From assembly GCA_000165345.1 (NCBI GenBank), contig CM000430.1, positions 224,001-288,000 on the forward strand: 64,000 nucleotides of DNA, given 5' to 3'. Below are positions 4,563 to 62,840 of the stretch, one piece after another (the stretch's first letter is position 1; each line of letters opens with the position of its first letter). The notes beneath the pieces were generated by a model that saw only the letters and a program-made list of their open reading frames with translations, did not search any database and was not told the origin of the DNA. Position numbers and translations under genes: made by a program.

Positions 4563-6326
<1,764 letters not shown>

Positions 6327-7246: not shown

Positions 7247-7258
7247 ATTGGGCGCCAA
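7247..7258. promoter_or_regulatory. E2F-like motif ATTGGGCGCCAA, about 190 bp upstream of the Rpn9-like gene
   Basis: Seen in sequence; a palindromic GGCGCC core flanked by TT and AA. Confidence 0.4.
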
Positions 7259-7450
7259 CAGCCTTTTGCATTGAGTGGGAGGGGGGAGAGGGGAAGACTA
7301 AGCTTAACAGACTTTCTTCTTTGGAAGGATCCACCATTGACAAAGAGTGTAAACAAATCATAGATATTCTCAAATAGAGTTTCTTGAGAGAATCTAGTTA
7401 AACAAAAGATTGAGGGAACGTAGAACGGAAAGGCTTGGGAAACAAAAGCA

Positions 7451-8743
7451 ATGATGGAATCTAGGACTCCATTGGAACAGCTAGAAATAGAGCTCAATAA
7501 GAGAGTTGAGCACAAGGAGCAGATTGAACAGTTAAAGTCTTATTTGAAGGAAAAGTTATATTTTCAGTTTTTGGAATCCTCTTTGGAATATATTTCTACT
7601 GATGGTCTCAAGGTTTGCGGAAACGAACTATGCGAATTCTTGGTAAATGCAGTTGAACCACTTAAAAGTAACTTTGATCCTTTGAGGTATGCAGTGTTTG
7701 TTGGGGAGGTTTTATCGAGGAGCCCCATCAGTATCCAAGAAAAGGTGGAGCTTCTCAAAAAAACAATGGGAGATGAGGATTTATATCAAGTAAAAGAAAA
7801 TTACAAGAATGCGAGCTTGACTCAAGAACAAAATATTGCACCAAAACAAGAAATCAAGGGTGATCTATACTTTAGATGCTTGCTAGCATTGGAGTATTCC
7901 AAGTCCAAGGATCTAAGTGTCGATTGTGAGGAAATGCTCGAGTTTTTAACCAAAAAGTTGGAGTTTTATAGGGGACTTGAGGCTGAAATATTAGCTTTAT
8001 ATCATCGTTCATATGCCTCTTATGAGAAAACAATGGGGAGAGTGAGCAGGTTTTACAGACAAACTATACACTACTTATCTTATACTCCTCTCAACAAAAT
8101 ACCTTATAAAGAAAAACCATCTTTGGTTTACGAGCTAATTATGGCTGCAGTCATTTCTGAAGAAATATATAATATGGGTGAGCTTGTTCTTCATCCAATT
8201 GTTCAGGAATTTAGTTCCATAGTTAAAGGAAATAACTCTAATCAGATGATAGATGAACTGACAAAAAAAGAGTTTGCAGAAAACGCATGGATACTTGAAA
8301 TATTAGTTTCATTGCATGAAGGTGATCTTAACTCTTTTATGAATGCTATTACAAAGTATCAAGATAAGGTTAGTAAAACCCCACTTTCCACTCCAGATGC
8401 CAGGGTATGCATTACCAAAAAGACTGCAACTCTAGCACTTATGGACTTAGCCTTTAGGAAGAATAAGAACGAGAGAGTTCTCACTTTTGACGAAATTGCA
8501 AAGCATTGTAGGATTGGAGCAAATGAAATTGAGCTATTAGTCATGAAGGCAATTAATATGAACTTGATAAAAGGTATTATTGACCAGGCTTCTCAGACTG
8601 TAGAAATTAGTTGGGTACACTCTAGAGTATTAGACAAAACAAGAATGAAATTATTAATGGACAAGATTGATAATTGGATCGGTTCCACCACGGATATTGT
8701 TTCCCAACTTGAGAATATTGCTCCTGAGCTTGTGAATTCCTAA
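7451..8743 (+). CDS. 26S proteasome regulatory (lid) subunit Rpn9 / PSMD13
   Basis: 430 aa with a C-terminal PCI domain. The C-terminus IKGIIDQASQTVEISWVHSRVLDKTRMKLLMDKIDNW closely parallels the PSMD13 tail ([37 protein letters not shown]). Confidence 0.7.
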   Translation: MMESRTPLEQLEIELNKRVEHKEQIEQLKSYLKEKLYFQFLESSLEYISTDGLKVCGNELCEFLVNAVEPLKSNFDPLRYAVFVGEVLSRSPISIQEKVELLKKTMGDEDLYQVKENYKNASLTQEQNIAPKQEIKGDLYFRCLLALEYSKSKDLSVDCEEMLEFLTKKLEFYRGLEAEILALYHRSYASYEKTMGRVSRFYRQTIHYLSYTPLNKIPYKEKPSLVYELIMAAVISEEIYNMGELVLHPIVQEFSSIVKGNNSNQMIDELTKKEFAENAWILEILVSLHEGDLNSFMNAITKYQDKVSKTPLSTPDARVCITKKTATLALMDLAFRKNKNERVLTFDEIAKHCRIGANEIELLVMKAINMNLIKGIIDQASQTVEISWVHSRVLDKTRMKLLMDKIDNWIGSTTDIVSQLENIAPELVNS

Positions 8744-9047
8744 TATATGTTTGAATATATACAAGTATAAAGTATTAAACACAATGAAATAGGATCTAAT
8801 TTAGAAATAAAAGAAAATAACTTTAACATTTTAATTCGTATTTTGCTACTTTTTCTAATTGAATCTATTCTATATTTTTGACAGAATAAGTAATTAGGCT
8901 TAGTTTTCTGTGTTTAATAATAAAATTTGCTCTAAGAATAAAATGTGAAAACAGATTCAATGGCAAAATTTAAGACATGAGGAAGTAGTGAACTAGTTGA
9001 ATGTTTTTCTTGATGAAGTGAGAAAAACTCGATGGGTATTTAAAAAA

Positions 9048-9992
9048 TTAAAGAAAGTTTTTGACGGTTTCGTAAGTACCCCAACATAAAGCATATGATG
9101 GAGCAATTAAAAGTGACCTGGCTAAAGCTCCGGAATACATTCCTCTGATACCTTGTTTTCTTAAAGTATCAATAAAAGCTTTTTTAACGCTAGGATAAAC
9201 AACTCTTAACGTTTCTTTTTGGGAAACATGACATGCTTGCGTTTGAAGCTTAGTTTTAATAAGATCGAGAGGGTTAGTAATAAATGCTGCAGTTCCACCA
9301 CTAATTCCAGCAATAACAAAATTGAATGTGTTTTGTTTAAGCAAATCATCCTTATTTTTTCCAAAAAGGGATTTGAGATTCTCATTTAATAATACAAATA
9401 AACCAGTTTGGGGGATATTCATAAACAAAGTTATAGGTAGGGACCTATAAAATGACCGAATTCCCTCCCTTTTGAACATTGTTATAATACAATCAGCCAT
9501 TCCTTTATAAGAACCAACTTGTAATCTTTGCTTAATAACATCAAGAGGGGTGGCAATAATATCATGAGAAATGGTTGATAATCCACCACATATAGCAGGG
9601 GAAACCACTGAATTGAATATACTCGTATTGGCGTCATGTAAAAGACTAGATTTACTTTCAGCTCGTTTTTCTAGTTTCTTAGTAATTTTTGACATCAACC
9701 TCTTAGAAAACTCGTAAGTAGTAAACATAGATGCGTGAGCTGGGACATTGCCAAATACTACAGCAGGAAATCCTCTAAAAAGAGCTCTTGCTCCATTGCT
9801 TCTAATAAATGCAATCATACCTCGATTTCCTGTTAAACCATCAACCTTTCCAGATTGTAGGCATGTCTTAATTGTATCTAGGGGAAAAAAGCAGGAATGC
9901 TCCATAACCCCTGCAATACTACCCGCTAGGGAGTGTTTCCAAAAAGGAATATCTCCTTTCCAGATTTCCCAGTCCTCAATATCTTTCTCCAT
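9048..9992 (-). CDS. Mitochondrial carrier family (SLC25) protein; substrate unknown
   Basis: 314 aa with three tandem repeats each carrying the Px[DE]xx[KR] signature (PLDTIKTCLQ, PLDVIKQRLQ, PLDLIKTKLQ) and six predicted TM helices. Confidence 0.8.
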   Translation of the reverse strand: MEKDIEDWEIWKGDIPFWKHSLAGSIAGVMEHSCFFPLDTIKTCLQSGKVDGLTGNRGMIAFIRSNGARALFRGFPAVVFGNVPAHASMFTTYEFSKRLMSKITKKLEKRAESKSSLLHDANTSIFNSVVSPAICGGLSTISHDIIATPLDVIKQRLQVGSYKGMADCIITMFKREGIRSFYRSLPITLFMNIPQTGLFVLLNENLKSLFGKNKDDLLKQNTFNFVIAGISGGTAAFITNPLDLIKTKLQTQACHVSQKETLRVVYPSVKKAFIDTLRKQGIRGMYSGALARSLLIAPSYALCWGTYETVKNFL

Positions 9993-10027
9993 AACTTTAG
10001 TATCTTTTTTCCTTTAAAATTCAATGT

Positions 10028-10040
10028 TAGGCGCCAATTT
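10028..10040. promoter_or_regulatory. E2F-like motif TAGGCGCCAATTT, about 38 bp upstream of the mitochondrial-carrier ATG
   Basis: Seen in sequence. It lies in the 70-bp gap between the carrier start (9992) and the 3' end of the cyt b5-domain gene (10065). Confidence 0.4.
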
Positions 10041-45325: not shown

Positions 45326-46603
45326 ATGGATTTATCTATTAAAAACGAAAATAGTTTGGCAAATTTCACGAGCGAAGAGTTAACATGCTACGAAACATGG
45401 TATAAAATAATTCAGCATTTCAGCGACAAATATCCTTCCAGTTCGGAACCGATTAATCACCATGATATTCCAAAGTTTGGGATGATTACGGCTAGGTTTT
45501 TAAAAACCTCGGGTATACCTAAGGATGTTCTTCACGATATATGGCAAATTGTTGATACTGAAAATAAAGGAATACTGGGATTTTCAGACTTTGGGAATGC
45601 ATGCAGACTAGTTTCATTTTTTCAACATGAAAAAATTTTCCCAAATCAACATATGTTATCAAAAATTCCTCTAAAACTTGCATATTTTAACATTTCAAAG
45701 TTTTGGGAAGAGGCTGAGAAAGCTGTTAAGGTTGATGAGCAAGATATAAATAGTATAATTAACTCATACTTTTCCGATACTTCGCATATTTCTGATTGCC
45801 TGAAAAGGTTCAAGGATTTAGACGAAAAGAAAAGTGGATATCTTGATGGTATTACGATCTTTAACAAGTACATAAGCTCAAATCTTGTTAGAAAAGAGCT
45901 TAAACAGATCTGGGACTTCTCTGATTTAGATGAGGATGGAAAGCTTTCGGCTGCAGAATTCATAATCTTCAACACTCTAGTCAAGGTTTCCATAGAAAGA
46001 AATATTAGTATTAATTCAGGTGTTTCTAAACAAAGTATGTTAATTGTGATCAACAAAATAATAGAAATGGAGAGTGAATATAAAGGAACAGATTATAGAA
46101 ATATTCTCAAGCTCAGAGAAAATAATTTAATACAATTTACTCCTGCTGAGGAAAAAGAAGTCGAAAAATTAAAGAGTGAAATTGAGATGTTGAACGGCGA
46201 AATTGATGATTTTAAACAGGCTAAAAATATATTGACACGTTATAAAGAAAGCGACGACCAGCAGATCCTTAAACTAAGCGAGAAAAAATTGATGTTGATG
46301 TCCGAACATAAAGAACTCATTCAAAATTTGAACGAAAAACACTCGGAAATAGTAAAGAACAGAGATTTAATTAACTATTTATACCAAGATATTAAATTCC
46401 TCAAAGAAACAAATAATTTGTTATCTAATTTCGATCTTCCAAAAGCTATAAATGTTAGAAATGGGAAGGTAGGCCCAGATACGAGTATTAACAAGAACAT
46501 TCCGAAGATTAATACAAATATAGGAGATGTTGTATTCGAAAAATGTCAAAATAGGAGGTATAAAGATTGGGTAGAGTTCCCTTCAAGGGGTAATCACGTT
46601 TAA
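45326..46603 (+). CDS. EH-domain protein (two Eps15-homology domains plus coiled coil; Eps15/End3/Pan1-like)
   Basis: EH domain 1: WYKIIQHF…GMITARFLKTSGIPKDVLHDIWQIVDTENKGILGFSDFGNACRLV. EH domain 2: SGYLDGITIFNKYISSNLVRKELKQIWDFSDLDEDGKLSAAEFIIFNTLV (EF-hand-like DLDEDGKLSAAEF). The C-terminal third is a heptad-rich coiled coil. Confidence 0.6.
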   Translation: MDLSIKNENSLANFTSEELTCYETWYKIIQHFSDKYPSSSEPINHHDIPKFGMITARFLKTSGIPKDVLHDIWQIVDTENKGILGFSDFGNACRLVSFFQHEKIFPNQHMLSKIPLKLAYFNISKFWEEAEKAVKVDEQDINSIINSYFSDTSHISDCLKRFKDLDEKKSGYLDGITIFNKYISSNLVRKELKQIWDFSDLDEDGKLSAAEFIIFNTLVKVSIERNISINSGVSKQSMLIVINKIIEMESEYKGTDYRNILKLRENNLIQFTPAEEKEVEKLKSEIEMLNGEIDDFKQAKNILTRYKESDDQQILKLSEKKLMLMSEHKELIQNLNEKHSEIVKNRDLINYLYQDIKFLKETNNLLSNFDLPKAINVRNGKVGPDTSINKNIPKINTNIGDVVFEKCQNRRYKDWVEFPSRGNHV

Positions 46604-46623: not shown

Positions 46624-49308
46624 TTATGATAGTTTGTATTTCTGTCCTGAAATCTTTCTAATACTTCCACTTATCACTAATGTGTCCAGGCAAGCATCAA
46701 ACTCCTTTCTATAGTCAAATTGGTTAAATTCACTTGAATTCCCTGTCTTGAGTTGTTCCATGATTTTGTTGAAGATTCCATCCTTGGAGATTCCATCAGG
46801 ATTATTGCTGAGGATCTCAAGCAAAATTTTATTTATCTTCGCTTGTATCATTCTTTCTCTTCCTCCAAAACCAATAGTCAGCTGTTCCATGTCGATCAAT
46901 CCTGTAGTTGGGTCAACTAATGCGCTATAGGTTGCAGACATCATTAGTCTAGTTGCCTCATCCACGTGCGATTTCTTAACCCATTCGGAAAGTTCCATTC
47001 TGGCCAGAGATTCCGAAATACGGATTAGGCTTTCTAGCTGTCTTGGAGTAGCAGTGATTGTTTTCTGTCTCTGCAAGCTGCCACCAGTAGAACCCTGTCT
47101 TCTCATTGAAATATAATTCTGCACCAACTTGTTGCACGCATCAGTTGATAGTTTTGGATTGCAATTTTGTCGGCAGTAACTTATATACCTAGAAAGAGTG
47201 ACTTTATCAAAAATGGCTGAGCTTGCGGGTTTTTCGTTTGAGTTATAGGATGTATAAAGCGCACATAGGTGTTCTGCAAGCCTTTTATCAGACTCTTCGC
47301 TCTGCTTGTCAAGCATTAGATAAATTAGGTCAAACCTAGACATCAATGATGGCGGAAGATTGATGTTTTCAACAACACTCTTTTTAGGATCATAACGACT
47401 TGAGATTGGATTTGCAGAGGCAAGAATAGCAACTCTTGCATTTAGTGAACAGATAATACCTGCTTTTGCAATGCTTACTGTTTGTTGTTCCATTGCCTCA
47501 TGCAAAATACTTCTTGAAGAATCATCCATTTTGTCAAATTCATCAATGCAACATATACCTCTGTCACTCAAAACTAGTGCTCCACTTTCTAGCACAATCT
47601 CCTTAGTTTCGGGGTCTTTTGTAATGTAAGCTGTCAGACCAACAGCAGAACTACCCTTTCCACTAATGTAATAACCTCTTGGGGTAATTTTGTGGATATA
47701 CTGAAGTAGCTGAGATTTTGCAGTACTTGGATCTCCACATAAGAGAATATTTATTTCACTCCTATTAAGAGAGGAGTTATTTGGCTGTTTATATTCTAAA
47801 GAGTTAGAAGATGAGCAATTCTGACCATCTAGACCAGCCACCATTTCTGATGCTGCCTTCAGTAGGTTTTTCCTACTTCCTCCAAAAAGTTGGCATAATA
47901 AACCTTTTTTTACATCATCATTCTCCCAAATACTTGGAGCGATTGACCTAGAGAGTTTATCATAAAGCATTGGATCCTTAGACATTGCGTGAAACTGCTC
48001 AATCATTTCTTTTGTAAAAAGATTGTTTTTCTCAACAGAATTAATGTTCTGACCATCTATGGACTGTATTCCATTGTCTATCTCTGACATTTCTCCAGCA
48101 GAATTACCAACTACAGAATAGAGCATATTACATGTGTTTTTGTTTACATGTAAAATGTCGATATAGGTTCTAAATACTGACATTAGCTGCCTTCTTTTAG
48201 CCACCTGTCTGACTCCGGATACCTTAACTATTCCATTAAACTCTATTCTATCGCCTGGACGGCAGCAATCAACCATTTCATCATATACATAACCTAAAAT
48301 TGTGTGTGGGGTCTCACCTGGTGGTATAGTATCAGGAAGCTCTTGGATCTTTAATATTTGCTTGTTAGAAAATTGGCATAAATTGTGCATAAGCTCAAAT
48401 GAGTAGTTGTTATTACAAACAGGGCACAGAGTAGGCTCATCAATCTCTCCCCCTATCAATAAACGATACTCTCTGTGGTCACAGTTTGTGTGCAAACCGT
48501 TTGCATTATAAGAACTAGTACATCTGAATACCGCCTTTTGCATCTCTGGAATAATGTCTGAACAGCGAATTACTATTCCACGAATGCTAACAAGTTGCTC
48601 AATATCCGATGGGTTTACTTCCCTCATATTACAAATATTAATATTATCAAATACACGTACTTTTGGAAGTGCAAATTCTTTTAGAAAATCATCACCTAGA
48701 ATTGACTCAATTTCAGATTCAATAACTTCATCCATAAATACTATCGCATCGCTTGGAGCGGATACAATAGTGTAATAAAGACCCTTGTTAAAGTCTTCAA
48801 TGTGTCTCAAGCTGATATCAAAGCTATATCCAGATGAGTGAGATCCATTTTTGTTATCATTTTCACCCTCAATTGTGAGTTGCGCTTCTAATAATTTCTT
48901 TAAAAGAGTCATATATGTTGATGTCCCACCATCAATCATTGAATTGCTCCCTTTTGAAGTACTGTACTCTGCAATTGAATCTCCATCTTTTGCAATGTAG
49001 CTTTTTAAAAAAGTTGAAAATAACTCCTTAAATTCAACTTCACCTCCAATTTCAACGCTGTTCAAATGTTTTTTTACTATTTCCGACTCATTCAAAGAAG
49101 ATGCATTACAACTGGACGCATAACGTTCGCCTCTAATTCTGGCCGTATCGCCTAAGTCCGTTCTTGAAAGCTTTCCTGCACTCCCAATTGTTCTTATACT
49201 TTGGCCTATTGAGCTTCCGTCCAATTGGGAATACCCATCATTCGCTGCGCTCATAGAAGCATCAAACATAATCCCATCGCTGTTTGCAACACTTTTTTCA
49301 TCTTCCAT
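46624..49308 (-). CDS. DNA replication licensing factor MCM, most likely MCM6
   Basis: 894 aa. C4 zinc finger (CTSSYNANG…CDHRE…CPVCNNN), Walker A GDPSTAKSQLLQYIHKITPRGYYISGKGSSAVGLTAY (GDPST…SGK.SSA.GLTA is MCM6-like), Walker B DEFDKM and arginine finger SRFD. The N-terminal block YMTLLKKLLE…ISLRHIEDFNKGL resembles the MCM6 N-terminus. MCM4 is not fully excluded. Confidence 0.6.
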   Translation of the reverse strand: MEDEKSVANSDGIMFDASMSAANDGYSQLDGSSIGQSIRTIGSAGKLSRTDLGDTARIRGERYASSCNASSLNESEIVKKHLNSVEIGGEVEFKELFSTFLKSYIAKDGDSIAEYSTSKGSNSMIDGGTSTYMTLLKKLLEAQLTIEGENDNKNGSHSSGYSFDISLRHIEDFNKGLYYTIVSAPSDAIVFMDEVIESEIESILGDDFLKEFALPKVRVFDNINICNMREVNPSDIEQLVSIRGIVIRCSDIIPEMQKAVFRCTSSYNANGLHTNCDHREYRLLIGGEIDEPTLCPVCNNNYSFELMHNLCQFSNKQILKIQELPDTIPPGETPHTILGYVYDEMVDCCRPGDRIEFNGIVKVSGVRQVAKRRQLMSVFRTYIDILHVNKNTCNMLYSVVGNSAGEMSEIDNGIQSIDGQNINSVEKNNLFTKEMIEQFHAMSKDPMLYDKLSRSIAPSIWENDDVKKGLLCQLFGGSRKNLLKAASEMVAGLDGQNCSSSNSLEYKQPNNSSLNRSEINILLCGDPSTAKSQLLQYIHKITPRGYYISGKGSSAVGLTAYITKDPETKEIVLESGALVLSDRGICCIDEFDKMDDSSRSILHEAMEQQTVSIAKAGIICSLNARVAILASANPISSRYDPKKSVVENINLPPSLMSRFDLIYLMLDKQSEESDKRLAEHLCALYTSYNSNEKPASSAIFDKVTLSRYISYCRQNCNPKLSTDACNKLVQNYISMRRQGSTGGSLQRQKTITATPRQLESLIRISESLARMELSEWVKKSHVDEATRLMMSATYSALVDPTTGLIDMEQLTIGFGGRERMIQAKINKILLEILSNNPDGISKDGIFNKIMEQLKTGNSSEFNQFDYRKEFDACLDTLVISGSIRKISGQKYKLS

Positions 49309-49945: not shown

Positions 49946-52381
49946 ATGACAAAGGAGAGAAGCTCTTCAATAATTAAACTGGAGAACTTTGAAAGTGCAG
50001 AGGCATTAATAGAGAATTATAGAAGGGAGTTTGAAATACATAGGCTGCATGAAACTTTGGAGTCTATGCTAATTGAAGAGGATGAATCCATTACTAATAT
50101 TTTAAATGCTGCTTATAGTGATTATTCGTTGATTTCAACGGATTTATTACCACTTGTTGATAGCTATCTGCCAAGTATTAAACAATTCCAAGAAAAAATT
50201 GATTCTAATGTAAATGATGTTACATCTATTGTTGAAAGATATTCTGAGGAAATTAATTCAAAGATCGATAACCATAATCTACTTTTTACCAAAAAACTGG
50301 AACAGAATTTATTTAAAATGTGTTATGATGAAATTAAAAGATATAGAGAGATATTGTCTATTACAAAAAGTCAATTTAATAAAGATGAAACCAGTAATTC
50401 ATTTCTATCAATAAGAATAATTCATTATTGTATATTAAGGCTATTAAAGATCAGAAAAAGTATTGATGCGATATATCAAACTATTAAAAAAAAACACACA
50501 AAACTCGACTTTGAATTTGAAAACAATAAACATTATAATGACTGTTTTGAAATATGTAATAATTTCTCTGATGAATTAAAGACATTGGTTGTTCAAGCAT
50601 CTAATAATATACTACAAGCCAATTATAGTAATTTTTTAGAAACAGAAGACTTTAAGCAAAACAATAATATATTGCTTCAATGTATCTTCCTTCTCAACTT
50701 AAAGGATGAGTTCATATCTAAAGTGAAGAACTATATTGGAACTGAAATAATTAGTAATTACAATTTTTATGACAATAAAGATGACAAACTTTTGTTTTCA
50801 AATGTAATAAATGACTTGGAAAATATTATTCAAGGTGAAAAATTGGCCAATTTCATCAATAAAATTGTATTTTCATTATTTAATTATGATGATGCTGAAT
50901 TTTTGATGTTCTTAATAGATATTTATATCCAGGGAGTTTTGTTATTTTTATTAGAGCACGTAGAAAGTACATATTCTGAACATATAGTTTCTCCTACCGC
51001 TCCAATGGACTTATTTGTTCATCAGCTAAACTCGATTATATCTCTAATTGAGAAGAATGAAAAAATTTTAATAAATTTTGAATCCAAAAGGATCCCAGCA
51101 AATAAATTAAAGGAATTGAAGCTAAAAATTCTTATTTGTTTCAGAGAAAACTACTTTATCAACAATTACTCAAAAAAATGGAAATTTGGAACTTATTGGA
51201 ATCTAATTTATAGAAATATTCTGAATAGGAGGATTAGCATTAGAAACGAAGTAGTCGAATTTTCAAAGGTTTATGTATATGACAATAAGAAGTATTGGTT
51301 AAAGTATTCAATCGAAATAATACGTCAAATACGTTGGATCCTTGGAAATTCTTCAATTCACAGCAATACCCCTCTTCCTCCTTCAAGATATTTGGTTCCT
51401 TTATTTATGCGTTGCCTTTATTCATCATTATTATTATTATATGACTACTCAAGCTATTTGTTGAGCTTTACGGAATTAAATAACTTTTCTGAAAAAAACA
51501 GCCAAAACAATTCAATTTGGTCTTCAAAAACTAAACCAGAACATATTTGTTGTGTATTAATGGATGCAATTTCTTTCGAAGAGTGGGTAAATATTCATTT
51601 TATTAACGAGATGTTCTTTCATATTGATCAGGTGAAAAGTGAATTTGGGTTTGTTGAGCCATTTGAATTATCTGAATATGAAAATGTTTTGGATATTGAT
51701 CAACTTAAATCGATGGTTAAAGATGAATTGATTAATCAAGATTATTTGGCTCATATTAATGAAAATCTCTTCAAACCGTTAACTAATACGATTAGTATTT
51801 ATTTGAAAAATCAAACGATAAGAATATTTGAAACAGGACTCAGAGCGGTTCCCTGTTTATATAGGCTTACTACAACATCAATTTCTAGCAAAGTTTCCGA
51901 TAAGATTGATAACAGTGAAAGAGTACCAAGTAGCTATATTGAGAATGCAACAAAACCCATTGAAGTGTTTTTAATATTTTCCTTGAATGCAATTAAATCA
52001 GTTATCGCAGATTTAAGTAGCAATACGATACAAAAGCTTAGAGAAACTTATTACAATATTTTATTTAATACTTTTGAGGGAATATTTGAGGAAATATTTG
52101 ATATTTGTGAAAAACAAATTCTTTCATCCAAGCACCAGCTGGCTTCACTACAAAAACTAGCGCAGAAAAATATAGGATCAGCAGCTAATAGAATTGACCC
52201 AAATATAATAGCATCTCAATATATGACGGACGTTGATACATGGTTGACAAAAATGCTCAGGTTAATCTCAAACTTCTTTGAAAATTTAGATCAAGGATCC
52301 GAAAAATATGTTAAAGAATATATAAATGCAATAAAAGAAGCTCCTAAATATCTTAAACTATATGAAATACTAAAAAACTAG
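49946..52381 (+). CDS. Hypothetical protein with an N-terminal coiled coil resembling vesicle-tethering (COG2/Vps51-type) subunits
   Basis: 811-aa ORF. The N-terminus (ENFESAEALIENYRREFEIHRLHETLESMLIEEDESITNILNAAYSDYSLISTDLLPLVDSYLPSIKQFQEKIDSNV) follows the F..F…LE.L…L…LIN.DY.DF..LS..L pattern of the COG2/Dor1 N-terminal domain. The rest is a long helical region. Confidence 0.35.
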   Translation: MTKERSSSIIKLENFESAEALIENYRREFEIHRLHETLESMLIEEDESITNILNAAYSDYSLISTDLLPLVDSYLPSIKQFQEKIDSNVNDVTSIVERYSEEINSKIDNHNLLFTKKLEQNLFKMCYDEIKRYREILSITKSQFNKDETSNSFLSIRIIHYCILRLLKIRKSIDAIYQTIKKKHTKLDFEFENNKHYNDCFEICNNFSDELKTLVVQASNNILQANYSNFLETEDFKQNNNILLQCIFLLNLKDEFISKVKNYIGTEIISNYNFYDNKDDKLLFSNVINDLENIIQGEKLANFINKIVFSLFNYDDAEFLMFLIDIYIQGVLLFLLEHVESTYSEHIVSPTAPMDLFVHQLNSIISLIEKNEKILINFESKRIPANKLKELKLKILICFRENYFINNYSKKWKFGTYWNLIYRNILNRRISIRNEVVEFSKVYVYDNKKYWLKYSIEIIRQIRWILGNSSIHSNTPLPPSRYLVPLFMRCLYSSLLLLYDYSSYLLSFTELNNFSEKNSQNNSIWSSKTKPEHICCVLMDAISFEEWVNIHFINEMFFHIDQVKSEFGFVEPFELSEYENVLDIDQLKSMVKDELINQDYLAHINENLFKPLTNTISIYLKNQTIRIFETGLRAVPCLYRLTTTSISSKVSDKIDNSERVPSSYIENATKPIEVFLIFSLNAIKSVIADLSSNTIQKLRETYYNILFNTFEGIFEEIFDICEKQILSSKHQLASLQKLAQKNIGSAANRIDPNIIASQYMTDVDTWLTKMLRLISNFFENLDQGSEKYVKEYINAIKEAPKYLKLYEILKN

Positions 52382-52391
52382 CATAAAGAGT

Positions 52392-54878
52392 TCATTTTTC
52401 GTCCCAAACTCGGTACCCTTTCCAATCAATCGGACAAATATAGTTATGTTCCTCCATGAACTTTAATAATGTTGAACTTGGACCATCTTTTTTCCCCCAA
52501 TTTTCTATACAATCACGCTCAAGGTCTAGAAGAATTTGTTTAGATACATACCAATTTCCTGCTAAGTAGTGTTTCAGACCTTTATTAAACCTATAGTAAA
52601 AATCTTGAAATAAATGTTTTCTCATGTTTTTTATAGAACTGTCTATATAAAATTCAGAAAATGCCCTGTAACTTAATTTACCAGTGTCAACTTGGTGAAA
52701 AATGCTGCTCGTCTCATCATCTTGAGCCTCTGGATCAATATCTATTGTATATAATTCCAGAGGTTGATTACTACCTTTTAAAGTAACGCAATCTATTTTC
52801 CTGCAAAACTGCTTCATGCTAACAGAAAGCTTTTCGAAAAGATTATGAGAAAGCAGAATATTTACTCCATAATGCTTTGTTGCACTTTCAAGTCTTGAAG
52901 AAAGGTTAACATTTGGAGATAAATAAGAGGCATCTATTTTATATTCTGAACCTATTGCGCCTTCTATTGCCCACCCATAATGTAATCCAAATCCAAGCTT
53001 TACTCTATAGTTTGGCATTCTTTCTTGGATTTCGCTCCTCATAGCGATTCTTTTTAGTTTGGGACAGCTAGAGATTTGCTTAATAATTATGACGAATGAA
53101 ATAACTGACATATCAGCTAATAAAGACTCCATCCCTTCCCACTTCTCGTCAGGTTTCCACACGAACAAAAATGCATCGCCAACATTCTTATTTGCTGATC
53201 CACCATATTTGCAAACTACTCCATGAGTAATTTCGGCAACTTGATTTACAAATACCATTACATCTTCACCCAATATTTCGGTTGCATCTGTGAAGTTTCG
53301 AATATCGCAAAACCCGTAAATACCCATTACTTTTTTACCAGGGAGTTTTACTACAACTTTATCATCTTTTAAATTATGAATAATTATATTAGCACCTGCA
53401 GATCCGAGACCTACTGCAAGTAATGTCCCTAGCTTTGAAAAGGTCTCCTCTAGCATTTTATTTGAAAATTTCCCCATAGTTGCATTTTCGTTACTTACTT
53501 CGTTGTATGCATTATTAGACATTTTCAACGCTAATAATGGATTACTTGCAATTGAGATGAGAGTATCGTTAATTCTCTTTATACTGCTGAAAATATGTTT
53601 TTCTAATACACAATGCACCAAAATCATTAATATTGTCAATAAAATTAGAGTTACAAATGATATTCCAATACTTAATCCTGCCCCCAATTGAAGCATCGTA
53701 GTAGTATCAAATACCATGGTTATCTTGGCTTTAAGCTCTTCTGGGCATGAACTATAAAAGTTAGAAATTGAATCAATACCTGATCTCATACATACTTGAC
53801 TCACATACTGCCTTAGTGATTGCTTGCGGATTTTTCTATAATCTTCAATTGGAATTAACGAGATCCCTTCTTTTAGAGTGGGTAATGTCAAAATTCCAAC
53901 AAACCAGGAAGGAATCTCAGAATTTGAAATAATTGACATAGCATCAGTCATAATTTCCAAATTAGATTTTGGGCAGCCTTCACATGTTGGGTTATTATTT
54001 AGAGTATATGGTGATTGTATAGCTACAAGCTTCATCCATTTAGAAGAGTCTCCAATACTATTTGTATAAACAAAATTACACAACTCTAACATATAAGCAA
54101 TTGGCCATGATTCATCACCTGGATACTGGTTTCTTAATATGGATAATTGACTAAGGTTTTTAATACTTAAAAATGCTGAACTATTTATTTGAATCCAAAC
54201 TGATGAACTTAATAAAGGATATAGCAACGCACTTAATACTAAAACGATTACAAATCTAAGGCCCAATATCTGCGAAAGAGCTATTTTATTCTCACTCAAA
54301 TGCTTATCAGAATCTAAATTATTCTTTGACAAATCTTTTTTTTGATTTTGTTGATATATGTTTTCTGTGTGAATAATCGATTTTTTATTGTATAACTTTG
54401 AGAATAAAGTAAAAAAGTCATTACAAACAAATAATAAAATAAATCTTGCACACTGCAATGTTGAGTTTATTAAGTTTAGTTGAAAGTTATATCCGTAGCC
54501 TTTTACTTGCGAAAACACTTGAAAATCATCAAAGTTTAGGGTATCAGCATCACATGTTGAATGCTCACTAGAGTCAAACAAAACTGCTGATAAAATGAGA
54601 AAAATATATGCGACCAAATCAAAAAAAAATATTGAGAGGTAGTTTTTTTTAAAGGCAAAAAAAACTAATATTTCGATTCCCCTAACGATTGTTAGAAATA
54701 ATATTATTGAAAAAAAAATCCAATCAGTTGTAGATTCTCTAAACAAAAATCGAACCTCATTGATAATAATTGAAGTTATTGTAAAGACCCCAAAAATTAT
54801 TAGTGTAAATTTGTTATAAAGAACTTTTTTCAATAATACTTCATATTCATATTTAAATCTATCCTTGAAAATCCTCAT
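52392..54878 (-). CDS. Membrane-anchored class III nucleotidyl cyclase (adenylyl/guanylyl): N-terminal multi-pass membrane domain plus C-terminal cyclase catalytic domain
   Basis: 828 aa. At least three hydrophobic helices lie in the first 110 aa, further TM segments follow, and there is a GYGYN motif. The C-terminal catalytic domain reads GIYGFCDIRNFTDATE…VFVNQVAEITHGVVCKYGG…KNVGDAFLFVW…VKLGFGLHYGWAIEGAIGSEYKIDASYLSPNVNLSSRLES (F.DI.GFT…G..K..GD.…+.G.H.G....G.+G…..Y...G..VN.ASR.E). Confidence 0.75.
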   Translation of the reverse strand: MRIFKDRFKYEYEVLLKKVLYNKFTLIIFGVFTITSIIINEVRFLFRESTTDWIFFSIILFLTIVRGIEILVFFAFKKNYLSIFFFDLVAYIFLILSAVLFDSSEHSTCDADTLNFDDFQVFSQVKGYGYNFQLNLINSTLQCARFILLFVCNDFFTLFSKLYNKKSIIHTENIYQQNQKKDLSKNNLDSDKHLSENKIALSQILGLRFVIVLVLSALLYPLLSSSVWIQINSSAFLSIKNLSQLSILRNQYPGDESWPIAYMLELCNFVYTNSIGDSSKWMKLVAIQSPYTLNNNPTCEGCPKSNLEIMTDAMSIISNSEIPSWFVGILTLPTLKEGISLIPIEDYRKIRKQSLRQYVSQVCMRSGIDSISNFYSSCPEELKAKITMVFDTTTMLQLGAGLSIGISFVTLILLTILMILVHCVLEKHIFSSIKRINDTLISIASNPLLALKMSNNAYNEVSNENATMGKFSNKMLEETFSKLGTLLAVGLGSAGANIIIHNLKDDKVVVKLPGKKVMGIYGFCDIRNFTDATEILGEDVMVFVNQVAEITHGVVCKYGGSANKNVGDAFLFVWKPDEKWEGMESLLADMSVISFVIIIKQISSCPKLKRIAMRSEIQERMPNYRVKLGFGLHYGWAIEGAIGSEYKIDASYLSPNVNLSSRLESATKHYGVNILLSHNLFEKLSVSMKQFCRKIDCVTLKGSNQPLELYTIDIDPEAQDDETSSIFHQVDTGKLSYRAFSEFYIDSSIKNMRKHLFQDFYYRFNKGLKHYLAGNWYVSKQILLDLERDCIENWGKKDGPSSTLLKFMEEHNYICPIDWKGYRVWDEK

Positions 54879-55249: not shown

Positions 55250-57307
55250 ATGTCCCCACAACTAAAAAACCTACACGATAAGAAAATATCCATTGATTTT
55301 ACTTTTCAAGATTTTTTTGAGCCTGATACATTGATTCAAGCTGATCGCCATTCTAGTCAAAGCAAAGAGGAATTGATTGAAGAATTTGACACTTTGTTTT
55401 CGGTTATTCCAAAAAATGACAAGACTTCCTTCGTCACTGGTTGTAGAGACTTTTTTATAATTGATAAAAAGCATTCAACTCAGAAAAACACCTCTAAAAA
55501 GAAAGGACTTAATACTAGTTTTTCAGAAATAAATAATTTAATTTCTAATGAAGCTAATGGAAAACGAGACGATTGTAATTTATCTTCAAACAGTAACGTT
55601 GAATCGCAAACAAGAAGAAACAAAACAAATCGATCTGGGGTTGGGAAAAGAAAGAACAAGAAAATAAGGTTCAATAGTGGTACTAAAGACAGTTTTCAAG
55701 AAAACTCTGATTTATTCCAAAACGATAGTCCTGGTCCTAATAATGGAATTTTGAATTATGAAGATTTTAGTCCTCCAAATTCACACAAAGAAACATTGGC
55801 AAGCGAGAATTCTTCATCAGAACAGTTCTCGCCATTATCAGAAAAGAAGCTACCTATAATTGATGGATATGGCCCATTTTCTCCAAGAAAATCAAAACAA
55901 CCTCCTCATATTATGCTGATTGTTCACGGAATTGGTAGCAACGAGTCTGCCATTAATAAAAATAGAGAGGAATTTGTTCACCAGCTAGAATCTGTAAAGG
56001 CACACTGGTTTTGGGAGGTAGATATTGATATTACGGTGGATGCAGTAGATTGGAAAAGTAAATTGGCATCTGTACAAGACCATATGTTCGACAGAATTAC
56101 TCTTCCTCAACATAGAGAAAATAGAATGCTTCTAAATAAGACGATTGGGGATGTGATGTATTTTATGGTTCCGAGATACGGAGATTATATTATTGCGGAA
56201 GTTGCAAAGCAATTAAATCAGAAAATTAAACAGTATAAGTCAAAAATTTCGGAAAAACCAAAAATTGTCTTAATTGGCCACTCTTTGGGAAGCGTAATAG
56301 TATATGAGCTTGTTTCAAGACAACAGACCAGGATTACTAAGTCAGAAATCCCAAAGCTCGACTTTGTTGTAGATCACCTGTTTCTGTGGGGTTCGCCATT
56401 ACCAGCAATGCTTGTAATGATGTTTCCGGAGTATCTGCGTTCAGGATTGACTCTTCCGAAAGGTCTTGCACCAATTCAGCCCAATGAAGGTTTTAGTGGA
56501 GGTAATTTTATTCTAAATAAATGCCCTGAATTAAAGATCTACAATGTCTTTCATCCATATGACCCTGTTGCATTCAGACTTGAGCCATTATTATATCCAA
56601 ATTTGGTTTCTCTGCCTGATCCTGTTCTTTTACCGTATTGGCGCAATCTTTCAAAGAGAACTTATCATCAGTGGGATAAGGAGATGGAGAATGCAAGAAA
56701 AGCTTTGTATGAGAGTATTAGTGGGATAACCTCTTCCATTTCTAATGCTGTGCTTGGCGGAATATTAGGATGGGGAGGAGTGAATGAATATAAATCTACG
56801 TTAGAAGTAAATCTTGTTCCCAGAGACCAAAAGATTAAACAGTTGAGAGATGAATCTGTGATTTCTAAATTTAAAACAAAGTTTTCCGCAAGTAGAAAGA
56901 CGGGTGCATTTACTGGTATCAACTTTTTAAATTCGTCAGAAAGGCAGTTAAAGACGCATAGCAATTCTGATAGAAGAGAAAGCGAATCTGTAAATTTTTC
57001 TTTGTTAAAAACCAATGAGGTTCCAGGAATACCAATTAGAGTGGACTATCAACTCCAAGAAGGGACTACTGAACACTACATTTCGTCATTAGCATTTCTT
57101 CAGTCGCACTTTAATTATTGGAAGAGCAGAGATTTAGGATTCTTTATATTATGGAAAATAATTGAAGATTTTGAGCCAGTAATTTCCTATGACGACTATA
57201 GAGCTGCATTAGAACATTTAAAACAAGATCAAACTGGGCTAGAGAATCTCGACTCGTCATCTGAGATTTCAGATGACTCGTCTTACAATGAGATAGAATC
57301 CGATTAA
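55250..57307 (+). CDS. DDHD-domain phospholipase (PA-PLA1 / SEC23-interacting protein family)
   Basis: 685 aa. Lipase nucleophile elbow IVLIGHSLGSVIVYELV (GxSxG) and a DDHD-type block (YNVFHPYDPVAFRLEPLLYP…, and at the C-terminus HYISSLAFLQSHFNYW). Long low-complexity N-terminus. Confidence 0.65.
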   Translation: MSPQLKNLHDKKISIDFTFQDFFEPDTLIQADRHSSQSKEELIEEFDTLFSVIPKNDKTSFVTGCRDFFIIDKKHSTQKNTSKKKGLNTSFSEINNLISNEANGKRDDCNLSSNSNVESQTRRNKTNRSGVGKRKNKKIRFNSGTKDSFQENSDLFQNDSPGPNNGILNYEDFSPPNSHKETLASENSSSEQFSPLSEKKLPIIDGYGPFSPRKSKQPPHIMLIVHGIGSNESAINKNREEFVHQLESVKAHWFWEVDIDITVDAVDWKSKLASVQDHMFDRITLPQHRENRMLLNKTIGDVMYFMVPRYGDYIIAEVAKQLNQKIKQYKSKISEKPKIVLIGHSLGSVIVYELVSRQQTRITKSEIPKLDFVVDHLFLWGSPLPAMLVMMFPEYLRSGLTLPKGLAPIQPNEGFSGGNFILNKCPELKIYNVFHPYDPVAFRLEPLLYPNLVSLPDPVLLPYWRNLSKRTYHQWDKEMENARKALYESISGITSSISNAVLGGILGWGGVNEYKSTLEVNLVPRDQKIKQLRDESVISKFKTKFSASRKTGAFTGINFLNSSERQLKTHSNSDRRESESVNFSLLKTNEVPGIPIRVDYQLQEGTTEHYISSLAFLQSHFNYWKSRDLGFFILWKIIEDFEPVISYDDYRAALEHLKQDQTGLENLDSSSEISDDSSYNEIESD

Positions 57308-58925: not shown

Positions 58926-60959
58926 TTAATTATTCAGCTTCTTAAAAATGCTGGTAGCACCAAATATATCTGAAATTATTCCACCTTTTGAAAGCTTTTT
59001 ATTGCCGCTCCCCTCATCTTCAATTTTTTGAACTTTAGTTTCTAGTTTTTGTTCGTGCTTGTCTCCCATCATCATTTTCATAAACTCATTAAAGTCAATA
59101 TAGCCATCTTGATTGATATCTACTTCCTTTAACAGCGAGTCTATTGTAGATTGTTCAAATGCTTCTTGAAGAAACGTGATATTTAGAACACGGCTAAGTT
59201 CTTGAGGAGATATCCTACCATCCATGTCAAGATCAAATACTTTGAATGCTGCCTTGCAGAGCGATTCTTGCTCATATAGCTTATGATCAATTGATGCAGC
59301 AATAAACTCTGTATAATCTATTCTACCATTTCCGTCAGTATCTAATTCCATTAATAGATTATCTATATCATCTCCCAACTGAGATACATTTTGAATTTTG
59401 TGTAGTGCACTTCTGATTTCATTAATTGTTAAAACTCCATCTCCGTTTCTATCTAATGTAGAAAACAATTTTTGTAATGCGCCTATATCAGCGTCATTAA
59501 GGTGGTATGCAACACATGTAAGAGCTAATTTCTTTAGTTTACTTTGTCTTTGGAAGTCCCTGAATCTTGCAAGCAATGAATTACAAACATCGTTAGTAAA
59601 ATAAGTAGCATCTGCAGTATTTGGAGAAGAAATTTGAGATTTAATCCAAGGATGATTTAAAGCATCTTGGGCACTTATCCTCTTATTTGGATCGGTCATT
59701 AATAACCTCTTAATAAGATCTTTTGCAGAGTCCGAAACATACTTCCAACTGTTGTGTTCTAATGAATATTGACCAATTTTTACCTTTCGTAAAATCTCAA
59801 CATTATCTTTTCCATGAAACGGTGGATATCCGCATAGTAAAATATATAAGATTACTCCTGCGCTCCATAAATCACATAATTTACTATAGCTACCATATAG
59901 TACCTCTGGAGCAACATAATAAGGAGTCCCCACAACAGAAGTAAACTTGTGTGTTTTTGGACATTTTGCAGCAAAACCCCAATCAATTACTTTCAATAGA
60001 GAGTTTGGAGAAGAGTCCGAAAATAAAAGATTTTCTGGTTTTAGGTCTCTATGCATAAATTCATTAGAATGGCAATATGCAATTGCACTAAAAACTTGTC
60101 TCATAATCACTGCTGCATACCTTTCAGAAAAGTGTCCTCGCTTAATAATTCTATCAAATAATTCTCCTCCCGTGCAAATCTCCATGACAAAATAGAGATA
60201 ATTCGTATCCTCAAATACTTCAAAAAGTTTAATAATATTTGGATGATCCAGCCTTTTCATTATCAAAATTTCTCTTTTTAAACGGTTAATATTTTCGAGT
60301 TTTGGTTTAAGTATTATTTTTACTGCTCTCTGTGCACCTGATTGTTTATCAATAGCTTTTACAACAGATCCATAAGAGCCTCTCCCCAAATTTCCCAAGT
60401 TCAGTTCGTAGAAATCATTAATATTCCTGTTAACAAGCGCATGCTCTTGAATTAAGCATGTTCTATCAAAAATTCCATGAGAAACTTTTGTACTCTCAGT
60501 ATTTTTGATATTTGAATCTGTAGAAGTTTCACGCTCACCATTTGGAGTGGTTACTTCCGGACTTGAGCATAGGCCTGCATATTCATTCTTGTCGCTTCTT
60601 TTTGAAAATTTGATATTCTTATTTGCATCCACAAATGACTTACTTTCAATAATTAGTCCACGAGAAATCTGTTCTTTCCCGCTAACCTTTTTTGGATCAC
60701 GGTATGGTTCTGTTGGATTGAGTTTTTGCTGAAGCTCCCCTGCACACTTTGTACACATAGCTGCATAAATGTGTCCCTCAAGATAATCATCGGAGTCTAA
60801 GCAGTTATTGGATTCAGATTTAGCTTCTTCAACTTCTGGTACAATTTCCTTTTCTTCGGCTTTAATATTGCACTCTTCCGTTACATTATGTAATACAGGT
60901 ACCATATTAGCTCCTACACGTTTAGCGCATTCATCTGCATTTTGTTCTATATTTAACAT
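58926..60959 (-). CDS. Calcium-dependent protein kinase (CDPK), second paralogue, with N- and C-terminal extensions
   Basis: 677 aa. Kinase domain (GRGSYGSVVKAIDKQSGAQRAVKII, HRDLKPENLLF, DWGFA, GTPYYVAPE) plus four EF hands (DRNGDGVLTINEI, DTDGNGRIDYTEF, DLDMDGRISPQEL, DINQDGYIDFNEF). An ~200-aa N-terminal extension includes a CTKCAGE pair. Confidence 0.9.
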   Translation of the reverse strand: MLNIEQNADECAKRVGANMVPVLHNVTEECNIKAEEKEIVPEVEEAKSESNNCLDSDDYLEGHIYAAMCTKCAGELQQKLNPTEPYRDPKKVSGKEQISRGLIIESKSFVDANKNIKFSKRSDKNEYAGLCSSPEVTTPNGERETSTDSNIKNTESTKVSHGIFDRTCLIQEHALVNRNINDFYELNLGNLGRGSYGSVVKAIDKQSGAQRAVKIILKPKLENINRLKREILIMKRLDHPNIIKLFEVFEDTNYLYFVMEICTGGELFDRIIKRGHFSERYAAVIMRQVFSAIAYCHSNEFMHRDLKPENLLFSDSSPNSLLKVIDWGFAAKCPKTHKFTSVVGTPYYVAPEVLYGSYSKLCDLWSAGVILYILLCGYPPFHGKDNVEILRKVKIGQYSLEHNSWKYVSDSAKDLIKRLLMTDPNKRISAQDALNHPWIKSQISSPNTADATYFTNDVCNSLLARFRDFQRQSKLKKLALTCVAYHLNDADIGALQKLFSTLDRNGDGVLTINEIRSALHKIQNVSQLGDDIDNLLMELDTDGNGRIDYTEFIAASIDHKLYEQESLCKAAFKVFDLDMDGRISPQELSRVLNITFLQEAFEQSTIDSLLKEVDINQDGYIDFNEFMKMMMGDKHEQKLETKVQKIEDEGSGNKKLSKGGIISDIFGATSIFKKLNN

Positions 60960-61391: not shown

Positions 61392-62840
61392 TTAATTAAA
61401 TTTTTTTGGTTCATCCACCTGCACAGAAGATAATCCATCACTTAAATTGGCTTCTTGAGTTTCGTTTGGGTTATTCATTAGCAAATTAATTGGGGTTACA
61501 TACATAATGAATGATGAAACTACGTAAAATAGGTGGAAGTAGAAGAAGTTTGAGGGGTTCAATTTACTATACATAATTGGAATAACTATGTAAATAAATC
61601 CAACAGGTGCAGTTGTCAATGCCATCAGGAAATTAATATTAGAGAATCCAAAACATTCGACTAAATAACAGTATGCAGTCGAATAAATGCAGCTTGCATA
61701 AGAAAAGAATATAAAGAATGAGAATATTCTCACTATATGAGATGCATTGAATAAGAAAAGAAATGATACAATAATTCCCAATGAGTTTTGGAAGATCATC
61801 CCTTTAGAAACTCCAATTTTGTCCATTATAAATCCATTCATTAAAGAAAATATGAATGAAAAGCATTGAAGGGTAGAAAATATAGACATCTGGCTTCTTA
61901 TAAGATCTATGTCAGTATTATTGGCACTTTGTAAGAATGAATCCAGGCATGCCTTAATTGAATCCGATCTGAAAACTGTAAGAGTAAAGTAAGGAAGTAA
62001 AAGAATGAAAAATGAAGATTTGAGTTGATTAATTAATGATTGATTATGAAGAGAGATCATCTCTGTAGAGCAAGTTGTATTAAATGTTAGTTCTGAGTTA
62101 GAATCTTCTTCCTCAATTGAATCTGAGCCTTGAAATTTTTCAAAAGAATTTTTGGGAATGAGCAATAGTGCAACCATTGCCAGTGTACCACAGACAAAAA
62201 TTGAATAAAATATCAAAATATTTCTAATACGAATTCCAGAAAATTCGTGGAAATGGTAGATGAAATAAAATACAAATGCTGAAACATCGCCCATTGTACT
62301 TAAAATAGATATTATTTTATTACCATGGTTTGGAAATAAATTACTTACAGATACAACACTGTTAAAAATTGGACCTTGAGGCAAACCTATTAATATAAAT
62401 CCAAGAGGATATAATGGAAAGTTTTGATTACTAATACAAAAAATTAAAAGCCCAAGCATAAACATTACTTGCCCAATAAATCCAGTTAATTTTGGACCCA
62501 AATTATCAAATAGCTTTCCACCTCCTAATACCGAAAGAATTATATTAGGTGCCATAATGCCTGCTGTCCAACATGTTGTAATATAGTTATCTTGAGCTTT
62601 GCATTTAGCTCCAGTTGGCAAAATTTCAGTTGGAATACCGTCGCAAACCCATTCATATGCGCCTAACTTATTCATAATAAATCTAATGCAAATACTTTGC
62701 TGAATTGCCGAAGTTGTAAGGCCGCAAAAAACACAGTAGATTATTAAGAGTATGTAACGGTTAATACCATATGGAGTTTTTTGATCATCTTTTCTTAACA
62801 AAGGAGAGTTCTCATTTCTATTCTGCGATTCATTATCCAT
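61392..62840 (-). CDS. Polytopic membrane transporter, MFS-like (about 12 TM)
   Basis: 482 aa, about 12 hydrophobic segments arranged 6+6 around a central hydrophilic loop (EEEDSNSELTFNTTCSTEMISLHNQS). No diagnostic family motif was recognised by eye. Confidence 0.45.
   Translation of the reverse strand: MDNESQNRNENSPLLRKDDQKTPYGINRYILLIIYCVFCGLTTSAIQQSICIRFIMNKLGAYEWVCDGIPTEILPTGAKCKAQDNYITTCWTAGIMAPNIILSVLGGGKLFDNLGPKLTGFIGQVMFMLGLLIFCISNQNFPLYPLGFILIGLPQGPIFNSVVSVSNLFPNHGNKIISILSTMGDVSAFVFYFIYHFHEFSGIRIRNILIFYSIFVCGTLAMVALLLIPKNSFEKFQGSDSIEEEDSNSELTFNTTCSTEMISLHNQSLINQLKSSFFILLLPYFTLTVFRSDSIKACLDSFLQSANNTDIDLIRSQMSIFSTLQCFSFIFSLMNGFIMDKIGVSKGMIFQNSLGIIVSFLFLFNASHIVRIFSFFIFFSYASCIYSTAYCYLVECFGFSNINFLMALTTAPVGFIYIVIPIMYSKLNPSNFFYFHLFYVVSSFIMYVTPINLLMNNPNETQEANLSDGLSSVQVDEPKKFN

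Follow-up and report, generated by a model that had tools for sequence, protein, structure and literature searches.

The 64,000-nucleotide stretch analyzed here (hereafter the window; contig CM000430.1 of assembly GCA_000165345.1, positions 224,001 to 288,000 of the forward strand) carries at 52392..54878, on the minus strand, an uninterrupted open reading frame (ORF) of 828 amino acids (aa) that encodes a class III nucleotide cyclase fused to an N-terminal membrane domain. A preliminary description of this DNA had pointed to a GYG tripeptide in the membrane domain and suggested that the protein might be an ion channel/cyclase chimera, as described for adenylyl cyclase alpha (ACalpha) of other alveolates. 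The locus thus raises the question of whether the encoded protein is a channel, a voltage-regulated enzyme, or neither. Our results indicate that it is the Cryptosporidium orthologue of ACalpha, and that it is probably a dimeric, cAMP-forming cyclase mounted on an anchor that derives from a voltage sensor and is no longer voltage-gated. Of the preliminary description, the family and the reservation about the fourth helix stand, and the argument built on GYG falls.

Identity of the gene and its relatives

The protein is identical in sequence to C. parvum EAK88839.1/QOY43107.1 (CPATCC_000819), recorded as a membrane associated adenylyl cyclase with six transmembrane regions and an adenylyl cyclase domain. 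Upstream of the ATG the nearest in-frame stop lies at 18 codons, with no further ATG between. Orthologues of 823-960 aa from about 10 Cryptosporidium species (C. hominis, C. meleagridis, C. tyzzeri, C. ubiquitum, C. canis, C. felis, C. andersoni, and others) are colinear with the window protein from Met to stop, so that no intron, missing exon or second transcript need be assumed; the unrecognized introns or exons and the split gene model considered earlier are ruled out by this colinearity together with the upstream stop. The 90% identity cluster of the protein includes C. hominis XP_666311.1, and XP_666311 has been named as a homologue of the proteins in which adenylyl cyclase is fused to a K+ channel (PMC3283738). 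This listing and the profile homology described below both bear out the ACalpha-type arrangement that had been suggested. Neither the gene nor its annotation nor its assignment to this family is new, and no functional study of the Cryptosporidium enzyme was found in our literature searches.

An exhaustive HMMER search with an N-terminal profile, built from aa 1-512 of eight sequences, retrieved 1668 proteins with E<=1e-3, of which 622 reached E<=1e-10. Named relatives include Eimeria proteins annotated as 'adenylyl cyclase, putative' and members from the ciliate Blepharisma stoltei and from Chromera velia. The Eimeria sequence P0022 matched in one stretch (E=1.4e-43, profile positions 13-507), and in the family alignments colinearity extends across the cyclase domain and the C-terminal domain. 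The distant relatives were reached by HMMER only; word-indexed searches with the protein and with family alignments returned only Cryptosporidium sequences, the metagenomic sequence P0012, and two bacterial cyclases. P0012 (ENA metagenome contig ERZ27247970:k141_741691) is the nearest relative from outside Cryptosporidium, at 26% identity, and combines a perfect ladder of basic residues in S4 with the loss of catalytic residues (RRGSNT at the six positions discussed below). It lies in tandem with a second gene of 796 aa (5082-7628 and 7648-10038) on a gene-dense eukaryote contig, and this neighbor is probably a paralogue, as it carries the same precomputed PF26726 match.

Membrane topology and the voltage-sensor-like domain

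The membrane part was modeled with AlphaFold2 (AF2) as aa 1-512 on a family alignment of 78 sequences, giving a model of good confidence with a predicted local distance difference test score (pLDDT) of 77.5 and a predicted template modeling score of 0.76. A full-length model on a 10-sequence alignment (pLDDT 49.8) was used solely for the secondary structure of the C-terminal domain. Hydropathy analysis revealed strong transmembrane (TM) segments at about residues 24-42, 58-76, 83-101, 204-222, and 406-424; a further segment, at about 134-158, is weak and amphipathic. The AF2 model of aa 1-512 contains helices at 23-45, 49-76, 81-103, 130-152, 184-223, 393-445 (very long), 447-461, and 470-504. 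Combined, the two give six TM segments at about 24-45, 49-76, 81-103, 130-158 (weakly hydrophobic), 201-223, and 402-424. The numbers of Lys and Arg, 7, 2, and 8 on the predicted cytoplasmic segments versus 2 and 1 on the external ones, are consistent with a cytoplasmic N-terminus, six TM segments, and a cytoplasmic cyclase, and this is the topology predicted by our models. The preliminary description had placed several TM helices in the N-terminal ~230 aa; five are found there, but TM6 and the 175-aa loop that precedes it had been missed.

Between TM5 and TM6, the AF2 model folds aa 234-391 into an alpha/beta domain. The region aa 226-392 contains conserved cysteines at positions 299, 302, 363, and 378, invariant across the orthologue alignment, and two N-glycosylation sequons. 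It is predicted to be an extracellular domain of the disulfide type, roughly 175 aa in size, and not the P-loop of a K+ channel.

The first four helices are predicted to fold like S1-S4 of a voltage-sensor domain (VSD), and the alignments indicate that S1-S3 descended from one. A profile of Cryptosporidium sequences only was compared by hhalign with a family profile from which Cryptosporidium and P0012 had been excluded (50% gap rule); the two aligned over aa 4-102, corresponding to S1-S3, with 96.9% probability and E=1.3e-10, and TM5 aligned separately. The window protein itself does not match Pfam Ion_trans (PF00520), even at E<=10. Among 52 aligned relatives, by contrast, 37 match this family (best E=7.8e-12), and the matches inspected cover profile positions of about 3-117 of 241 only, that is, S1-S4. 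The test that the preliminary description had proposed for an ion-transport domain thus gave a mixed answer, negative for the protein itself and positive for its relatives over the sensor half only. Matches of the family membrane profile to the sequences of solved Cav1.1 and Shaker are weak (E 0.012-0.15) and restricted to the VSD region, and the match to Hv1 is marginal (E=0.92).

The S4 helix of the Cryptosporidium proteins has lost nearly all of its charge. The ladder comprises columns 126, 129, 133, 136, 139, 142, 145, 148, and 151 (protein numbering), which are Lys or Arg in 82-98% of 121 non-Cryptosporidium relatives. In these relatives S4 has a median of 9 basic residues, and the median ladder length is 7-8 R/K-x-x repeats in succession, whereas each of the eight Cryptosporidium sequences contains 2-3 basic residues and lacks a ladder. 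In all eight, K/R126 and R145 are the sole ladder residues left; the remaining columns read G129, Q133, L136, S139, Q142, L148, and V151. A few environmental relatives show partial erosion of S4, but none as complete as in Cryptosporidium. The earlier remark that no clean S4 with spaced Arg/Lys could be seen was therefore correct.

A second change is found in S2. An F-x-x-E motif in this helix and an Asp in S3 are shared family-wide (F in 47/52, E69 in 49/52, and D87 in 52/52 aligned sequences), and we take these residues to correspond to F290, E293, and D316 of the gating-charge transfer centre of Shaker. In every Cryptosporidium sequence the Phe is replaced by Arg66 (S2, aa 49-76; codon at window positions 54678-54680), beside the invariant E69 and D87. 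Arg66 may serve as a 'plug' that makes up for the missing arginines of S4. The combination of a genus-wide degenerate sensor with intact catalysis is modestly new, in that we did not find it stated in the papers searched.

The GYG tripeptide and the search for a pore

The string VKGYGYNFQ highlighted in the preliminary description is present at aa 125-133, with GYG at 127-129. Both hydropathy and the AF2 model place it in the extracellular connection between TM3 and TM4, in the part of the model with the lowest confidence (pLDDT<50 at residues 119-127). In the alignment with the 121 relatives, K126-G127-Y128-G129 coincides with a family R/K-A-S-R/K sequence at the outer end of S4, where 82% of the relatives have R/K in column 126 and 86% in column 129. 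Since KGYG occupies this site, GYG appears to be a by-product of S4 charge loss and not a selectivity filter. The T-[VI]-G-[YF]-G context of the K+ filter is absent, and GYG is limited to the parvum-like clade; two species have GFG instead, C. andersoni has NFG, and P0012 has GAS. From the composition of the protein, the chance expectation is 0.21 G[YF]G tripeptides; two were observed, the second being GFG at 629-631 within the cyclase domain, and as a motif GYG does not rise above chance. Its role as the pore loop of a channel, as envisaged earlier, is contradicted by its position, its variability, and its place in the S4 ladder columns.

A G-x-G after the sixth TM helix is the criterion that Prole and Marrion (2012) used for the family, and it has been proposed to form a pore loop (PMC3283738). 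The window protein possesses such a motif, not at aa 127-129 but at aa 490-492, where GLG forms part of LLAVGLGSAG, a segment whose conservation is the highest in the non-catalytic part of the protein. Here G[YFL]G occurs in 117/129 family members; G492 is invariant, and among the relatives 50/52 have G at position 490 and 47/52 have F at position 491. With six TM segments, the GLG segment would be cytoplasmic, and in the AF2 model it is embedded in an unbroken helix (470-504, pLDDT about 71-77). No solved cyclase aligned with this segment; the matches begin at beta1, and extending the family profile upstream revealed no resemblance to the N-terminal helices of solved cyclases.

Across 129 family members, the loop between TM5 and TM6, where a channel would carry its filter, measures 190 aa at the median (range 97-246). 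A [TS]xG[YFL]G motif was found in this loop in 0/129 and G[YF]G in 4/129. Neither sequence profiles nor fold comparison revealed similarity to a pore domain: a Foldseek search against the PDB gave no significant match (best HCN1, E=0.47), and no solved channel was retrieved with an N-terminal sequence profile dominated by Cryptosporidium. Judged from these alignments, no pore domain appears to be detectable anywhere in the ACalpha family, although the GLG segment might still adopt a re-entrant arrangement on the cytoplasmic side of a tetramer. For the Plasmodium falciparum enzyme (PfACalpha), cyclase activity has been demonstrated, while channel activity was never confirmed for any recombinant member of the family (PMC5746546), and a K+ conductance has been reported only with the purified native Paramecium enzyme (PMC5746546; PMC2279260; PMC10651576), the source being Schultz 1992 as cited in PMC3283738 and PMC5746546.

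Catalytic and C-terminal domains

The class III cyclase domain recognized in the preliminary description was confirmed by Pfam Guanylate_cyc (PF00211; aa 523-712, E=3.3e-8, 33.8 bits against a cutoff of 21.9), the sole Pfam family found in the window protein, and by solved class III cyclases, with E-values up to 1.6e-12 with the protein and down to 6e-18 with the family profile. D525 and D568 align with the metal ligands of CyaB (3r5g), bPAC (5mbh), OaPAC, and Spirulina CyaC. Alignment to the solved cyclases further places K564 at the purine-specifying Lys position, S651 at the Thr position of class IIIb, and N658 and R662 at the positions of the transition-state residues. The catalytic set is thus complete and of adenylyl type, resembling class IIIb (K564/S651); a Lys with a hydroxyl residue indicates ATP, not the Glu/Cys pattern of guanylyl cyclases, an assignment that the preliminary description had left to an alignment. 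The best solved relatives of the domain are all class IIIb enzymes. In class III enzymes, a single catalytic domain per chain requires a homodimer for activity.

All Cryptosporidium orthologues retain this DKDSNR signature, as do the members from Eimeria, Blepharisma, and Chromera. Only 10/52 sampled relatives (about 20%) have it complete; most others read RKDSSS or similar, without the first metal Asp and the Asn/Arg pair. These degenerate signatures suggest that paralogues serving as pseudo-cyclases or heterodimer partners have multiplied greatly in free-living alveolates.

The cyclase is followed by a conserved helical domain with family-wide motif residues G774, W776, D798, G799, P800, W819, and G821, for which a weak TPR_2 match was seen in the Chromera relative. 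A precomputed match to PF26726 'Helical_RasGEFs' is present on all orthologues and may be located in this C-terminal domain or in the cytosolic linker helices. The features of the protein and of the genes around it are listed in Table 1.

Table 1. Features of the cyclase gene and neighboring genes, in window coordinates
Feature	Position	Strand	Basis or remark
Complete coding sequence, 828 aa plus stop; membrane adenylyl cyclase (ACalpha orthologue)	52392..54878	-	ORF, exact record match, colinear orthologues
Predicted cytoplasmic N-terminus, aa 1-23 (7 Lys/Arg)	54810..54878	-	Positive-inside count; AF2 helix 2-20
Predicted S1-S3 of voltage-sensor-like four-helix bundle, aa 24-103; E69 (S2), D87 (S3), R66	54570..54809	-	
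Degenerate S4, aa 126-158; K126 and R145 kept of nine periodic basic positions	54405..54503	-	Column counts; motif scan
GYG, aa 127-129, putative vestige of S4 outer end	54492..54500	-	Coordinates checked; family S4 columns; pLDDT<50
S4-TM5 linker, predicted cytoplasmic, Lys-rich, poorly conserved, aa 159-200	54279..54404	-	8 Lys/Arg; low pLDDT; variable among orthologues
TM5, aa 201-223	54210..54278	-	Hydropathy 2.33; aligned to family ESxVGKKLSxxTTRRVIxLVL..P segment
Predicted extracellular alpha/beta domain between TM5 and TM6, aa 226-392	53703..54203	-	AF2 secondary structure, pLDDT 65-91
TM6, aa 402-424, predicted to run on as a long cytosolic helix to aa 445	53607..53675	-	Hydropathy 2.71; AF2 helix 393-445
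Predicted cytosolic helical linker, aa 425-515, with conserved NPLLA motif (446-450)	53334..53606	-	AF2 helices 447-461 and 470-504; invariant columns
LLAVGLGSAG, aa 486-495, family 'G-x-G after TM6'	53394..53423	-	Invariant columns; AF2; published claim (PMC3283738)
Class III cyclase catalytic domain, aa 516-715	52734..53333	-	Pfam PF00211; alignment to CyaB 3r5g and bPAC 5mbh
Conserved C-terminal helical domain, aa 735-828	52395..52676	-	Full-length model helices 737-810, low confidence
DDHD-domain lipase	55250-57307	+	371-bp divergent intergenic region shared with cyclase
Calcium-dependent protein kinase, kinase and four EF hands	58926-60959	-	
MCM helicase subunit	46624-49308	-	
MFS transporter	61392-62840	-	
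EH-domain protein	45326-46603	+	

Proposed mechanism and alternatives

The reading that we consider probable, a dimeric cyclase on a voltage-blind anchor, would operate as follows. As each chain has a single catalytic domain, the enzyme would form a homodimer producing cAMP on the cytoplasmic side of the membrane. The S4 ladder (7-9 basic residues), the Phe-x-x-Glu of S2, and the Asp of S3 look like a working voltage sensor in most relatives, and membrane potential would there be coupled to the cyclase through TM6 and the linker helices, making these proteins VSD-coupled enzymes and not canonical K+ channels. TM6 is predicted to continue into long cytosolic helices that bear LLAVGLGSAG and lead to the catalytic domain. 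In Cryptosporidium the sensor seems to have decayed, with seven of nine S4 charges gone and Arg66 at the site of the charge-transfer Phe, and with such decay the membrane module would most likely be a static anchor and dimerization scaffold. Regulation would then come from the ectodomain, the cytosolic helices or the C-terminal domain, and not from voltage. By descent the protein is a member of ACalpha, but with two basic S4 residues and no ladder the label 'voltage-gated' should not be transferred to it.

Several observations weigh against this reading. K126, R145, R66, E69, and D87 remain, and loss of S4 charge does not strictly exclude voltage sensitivity. The purified native Paramecium cyclase was reported to conduct K+ (Schultz 1992, as cited in PMC3283738 and PMC5746546). 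The near invariance of the post-TM6 G-x-G, Cryptosporidium included, is not explained by an anchor of this kind, and the helix that contains it was predicted with moderate confidence and modeled without the cyclase domain or a partner chain.

The idea that the protein is a K+ channel/cyclase chimera with GYG 127-129 as the selectivity filter of a pore built from the N-terminal helices can draw on a tripeptide that is real, with G127 and G129 kept in most Cryptosporidium species around a Y or F, and on a literature that calls the family an ion-channel fusion (PMC3283738; PMC2279260; PMC5746546). We give it almost no credence, since the motif lies between TM3 and TM4, neither between the last two helices nor after them, becomes NFG in C. 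andersoni and GAS in P0012, coincides with the start of S4 in 121 relatives, lacks the T-[VI] context, is of a kind for which 0.21 occurrences are expected by chance, and falls in the least confident region of the model. The published ACalpha model (cited as Weber et al. 2004), in which a K+-permeable tetramer forms its pore from the segment corresponding to GLG 490-492 and the cyclase is controlled by ion flux or voltage, in Cryptosporidium as elsewhere, deserves more weight but still appears unlikely. It would account for the conservation of LLAVGLGSAG, with its invariant G492 and its G[YFL]G in 117/129 members, and for the hydrophobicity of the segment (Kyte-Doolittle value 1.6, one orthologue), and it agrees with the K+ conductance of the Paramecium enzyme and with the requirement of sporozoite exocytosis for extracellular K+ (PMC2279260; PMC5746546). 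Yet with six TM segments and the N-terminus inside, the segment would be cytoplasmic and part of one continuous predicted helix, no profile or fold similarity to pore domains was found, recombinant channel activity was never confirmed (PMC5746546), and in Cryptosporidium the gating of such a pore would depend on a degenerate sensor. A single-domain class III cyclase needs dimers, so that a tetramer could exist only as a dimer of dimers.

A residual electrical function, with either a sensor that still works or a VSD-like bundle that itself conducts ions or protons in the manner of Hv1 or an omega-current, seems to us quite improbable. E69 and D87 are invariant, R145 is kept at a central ladder position, S1-S3 are strongly conserved within the genus, and VSDs can as a general phenomenon conduct ions once S4 arginines are replaced (review, PMC10651576). 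At the seven lost basic positions, on the other hand, every Cryptosporidium species carries G, Q, L, S, Q, L, and V, the plug Phe has become Arg66, which could neutralize E69/D87, and the match to Hv1 reaches E=0.92 only. The readings of the protein as a guanylyl cyclase or as an inactive pseudo-cyclase scaffold were rejected on the catalytic residues and are very improbable. Most metagenomic relatives are indeed degenerate (DKDSNR in 10/52, and RRGSNT in P0012), but all six canonical residues are kept in every Cryptosporidium orthologue, Lys564 and Ser651 specify ATP and do not follow the Glu/Cys pattern, and the Plasmodium orthologue is an active adenylyl cyclase (PMC5746546).

Beyond the voltage-blind anchor favored above, the results can be drawn together into a more far-reaching reading, which as a whole we put forward tentatively and regard as doubtful. 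The Cryptosporidium protein would be a voltage-blind, receptor-type cyclase derived from an ancestral voltage-coupled one, its S4 gating charges having been erased before the genus radiated and its charge-transfer centre being permanently locked by Arg66. Control would have passed to the Cys-containing ectodomain between TM5 and TM6, which might sense cues from the host gut. The whole ACalpha family would consist of VSD-coupled enzymes like Ci-VSP and not of K+ channels, with the post-TM6 'pore loop' being a cytosolic transducer or dimerization helix.

Genomic neighborhood

The window is AT-rich (about 27-41% G+C), with long, tightly packed ORFs. A convergent gene of 811 aa (49946-52381, plus strand) with a weak COG2_C match (E=9e-6) adjoins the cyclase gene. 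The two stop codons are 10 bp apart (window positions 52382-52391), so that the 3' untranslated regions of both genes must overlap or be extremely short. The genes around the cyclase form an unremarkable chromosomal setting, and nothing in it points to a functional cluster.

Significance

In related apicomplexans, cAMP signaling governs exocytosis, motility, and invasion. ACalpha is parasite-specific, with no human counterpart of the same design, and its regulation therefore matters for Cryptosporidium biology and for drug targeting. Given its degenerate sensor and the apparent lack of a detectable pore domain throughout the family, neither the channel-like label nor the idea of a GYG pore should be passed on to the Cryptosporidium protein. 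The S4-intact relatives (Eimeria, ciliates, and Chromera) and the S4-less Cryptosporidium enzyme constitute a natural experiment that could test the voltage coupling of ACalpha, a question that goes back to 1992-2004.

Comparison with known systems

The window protein has the same order of parts as alveolate ACalpha (Paramecium, Tetrahymena, and Plasmodium; Toxoplasma ACalpha1-3; Eimeria), namely S1-S4, TM5, a large extracellular loop, TM6, the G-x-G helix, a single class III domain, and the C-terminal helical domain, and its homology to the family across the membrane part is significant (E about 1e-40 with the N-terminal profile). It differs from the family in lacking seven of the nine basic residues of S4, in having Arg for the charge-transfer Phe of S2, in a post-TM6 motif that reads GLG where the family has GFG, and in the loss of the Ion_trans match. 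With the six-TM Kv channels of the Shaker type it shares the number of TM segments and the cytoplasmic N-terminus, and its relatives match the VSDs of Shaker and Cav1.1 over S1-S4. In contrast to these channels, the S5-P-S6 half of Ion_trans is never matched in the ACalpha relatives inspected, and the T-x-G-Y-G filter between TM5 and TM6 (0/129) gives way to a globular domain of roughly 190 aa. In the window protein two further TM helices and the ectodomain follow the VSD-like bundle, and the effector would be a dimeric cyclase. Compared with the class IIIb cyclases (CyaB 3r5g, bPAC 5mbh, OaPAC, CyaC 1wc0, and sAC-like enzymes), the same six catalytic positions are occupied and a hydroxyl residue stands at the Thr position, but the window protein has Ser for Thr and an insertion of roughly 50 aa that separates the beta2-beta3 region from the second half of the domain, and the N-terminal partner domains are unrelated.

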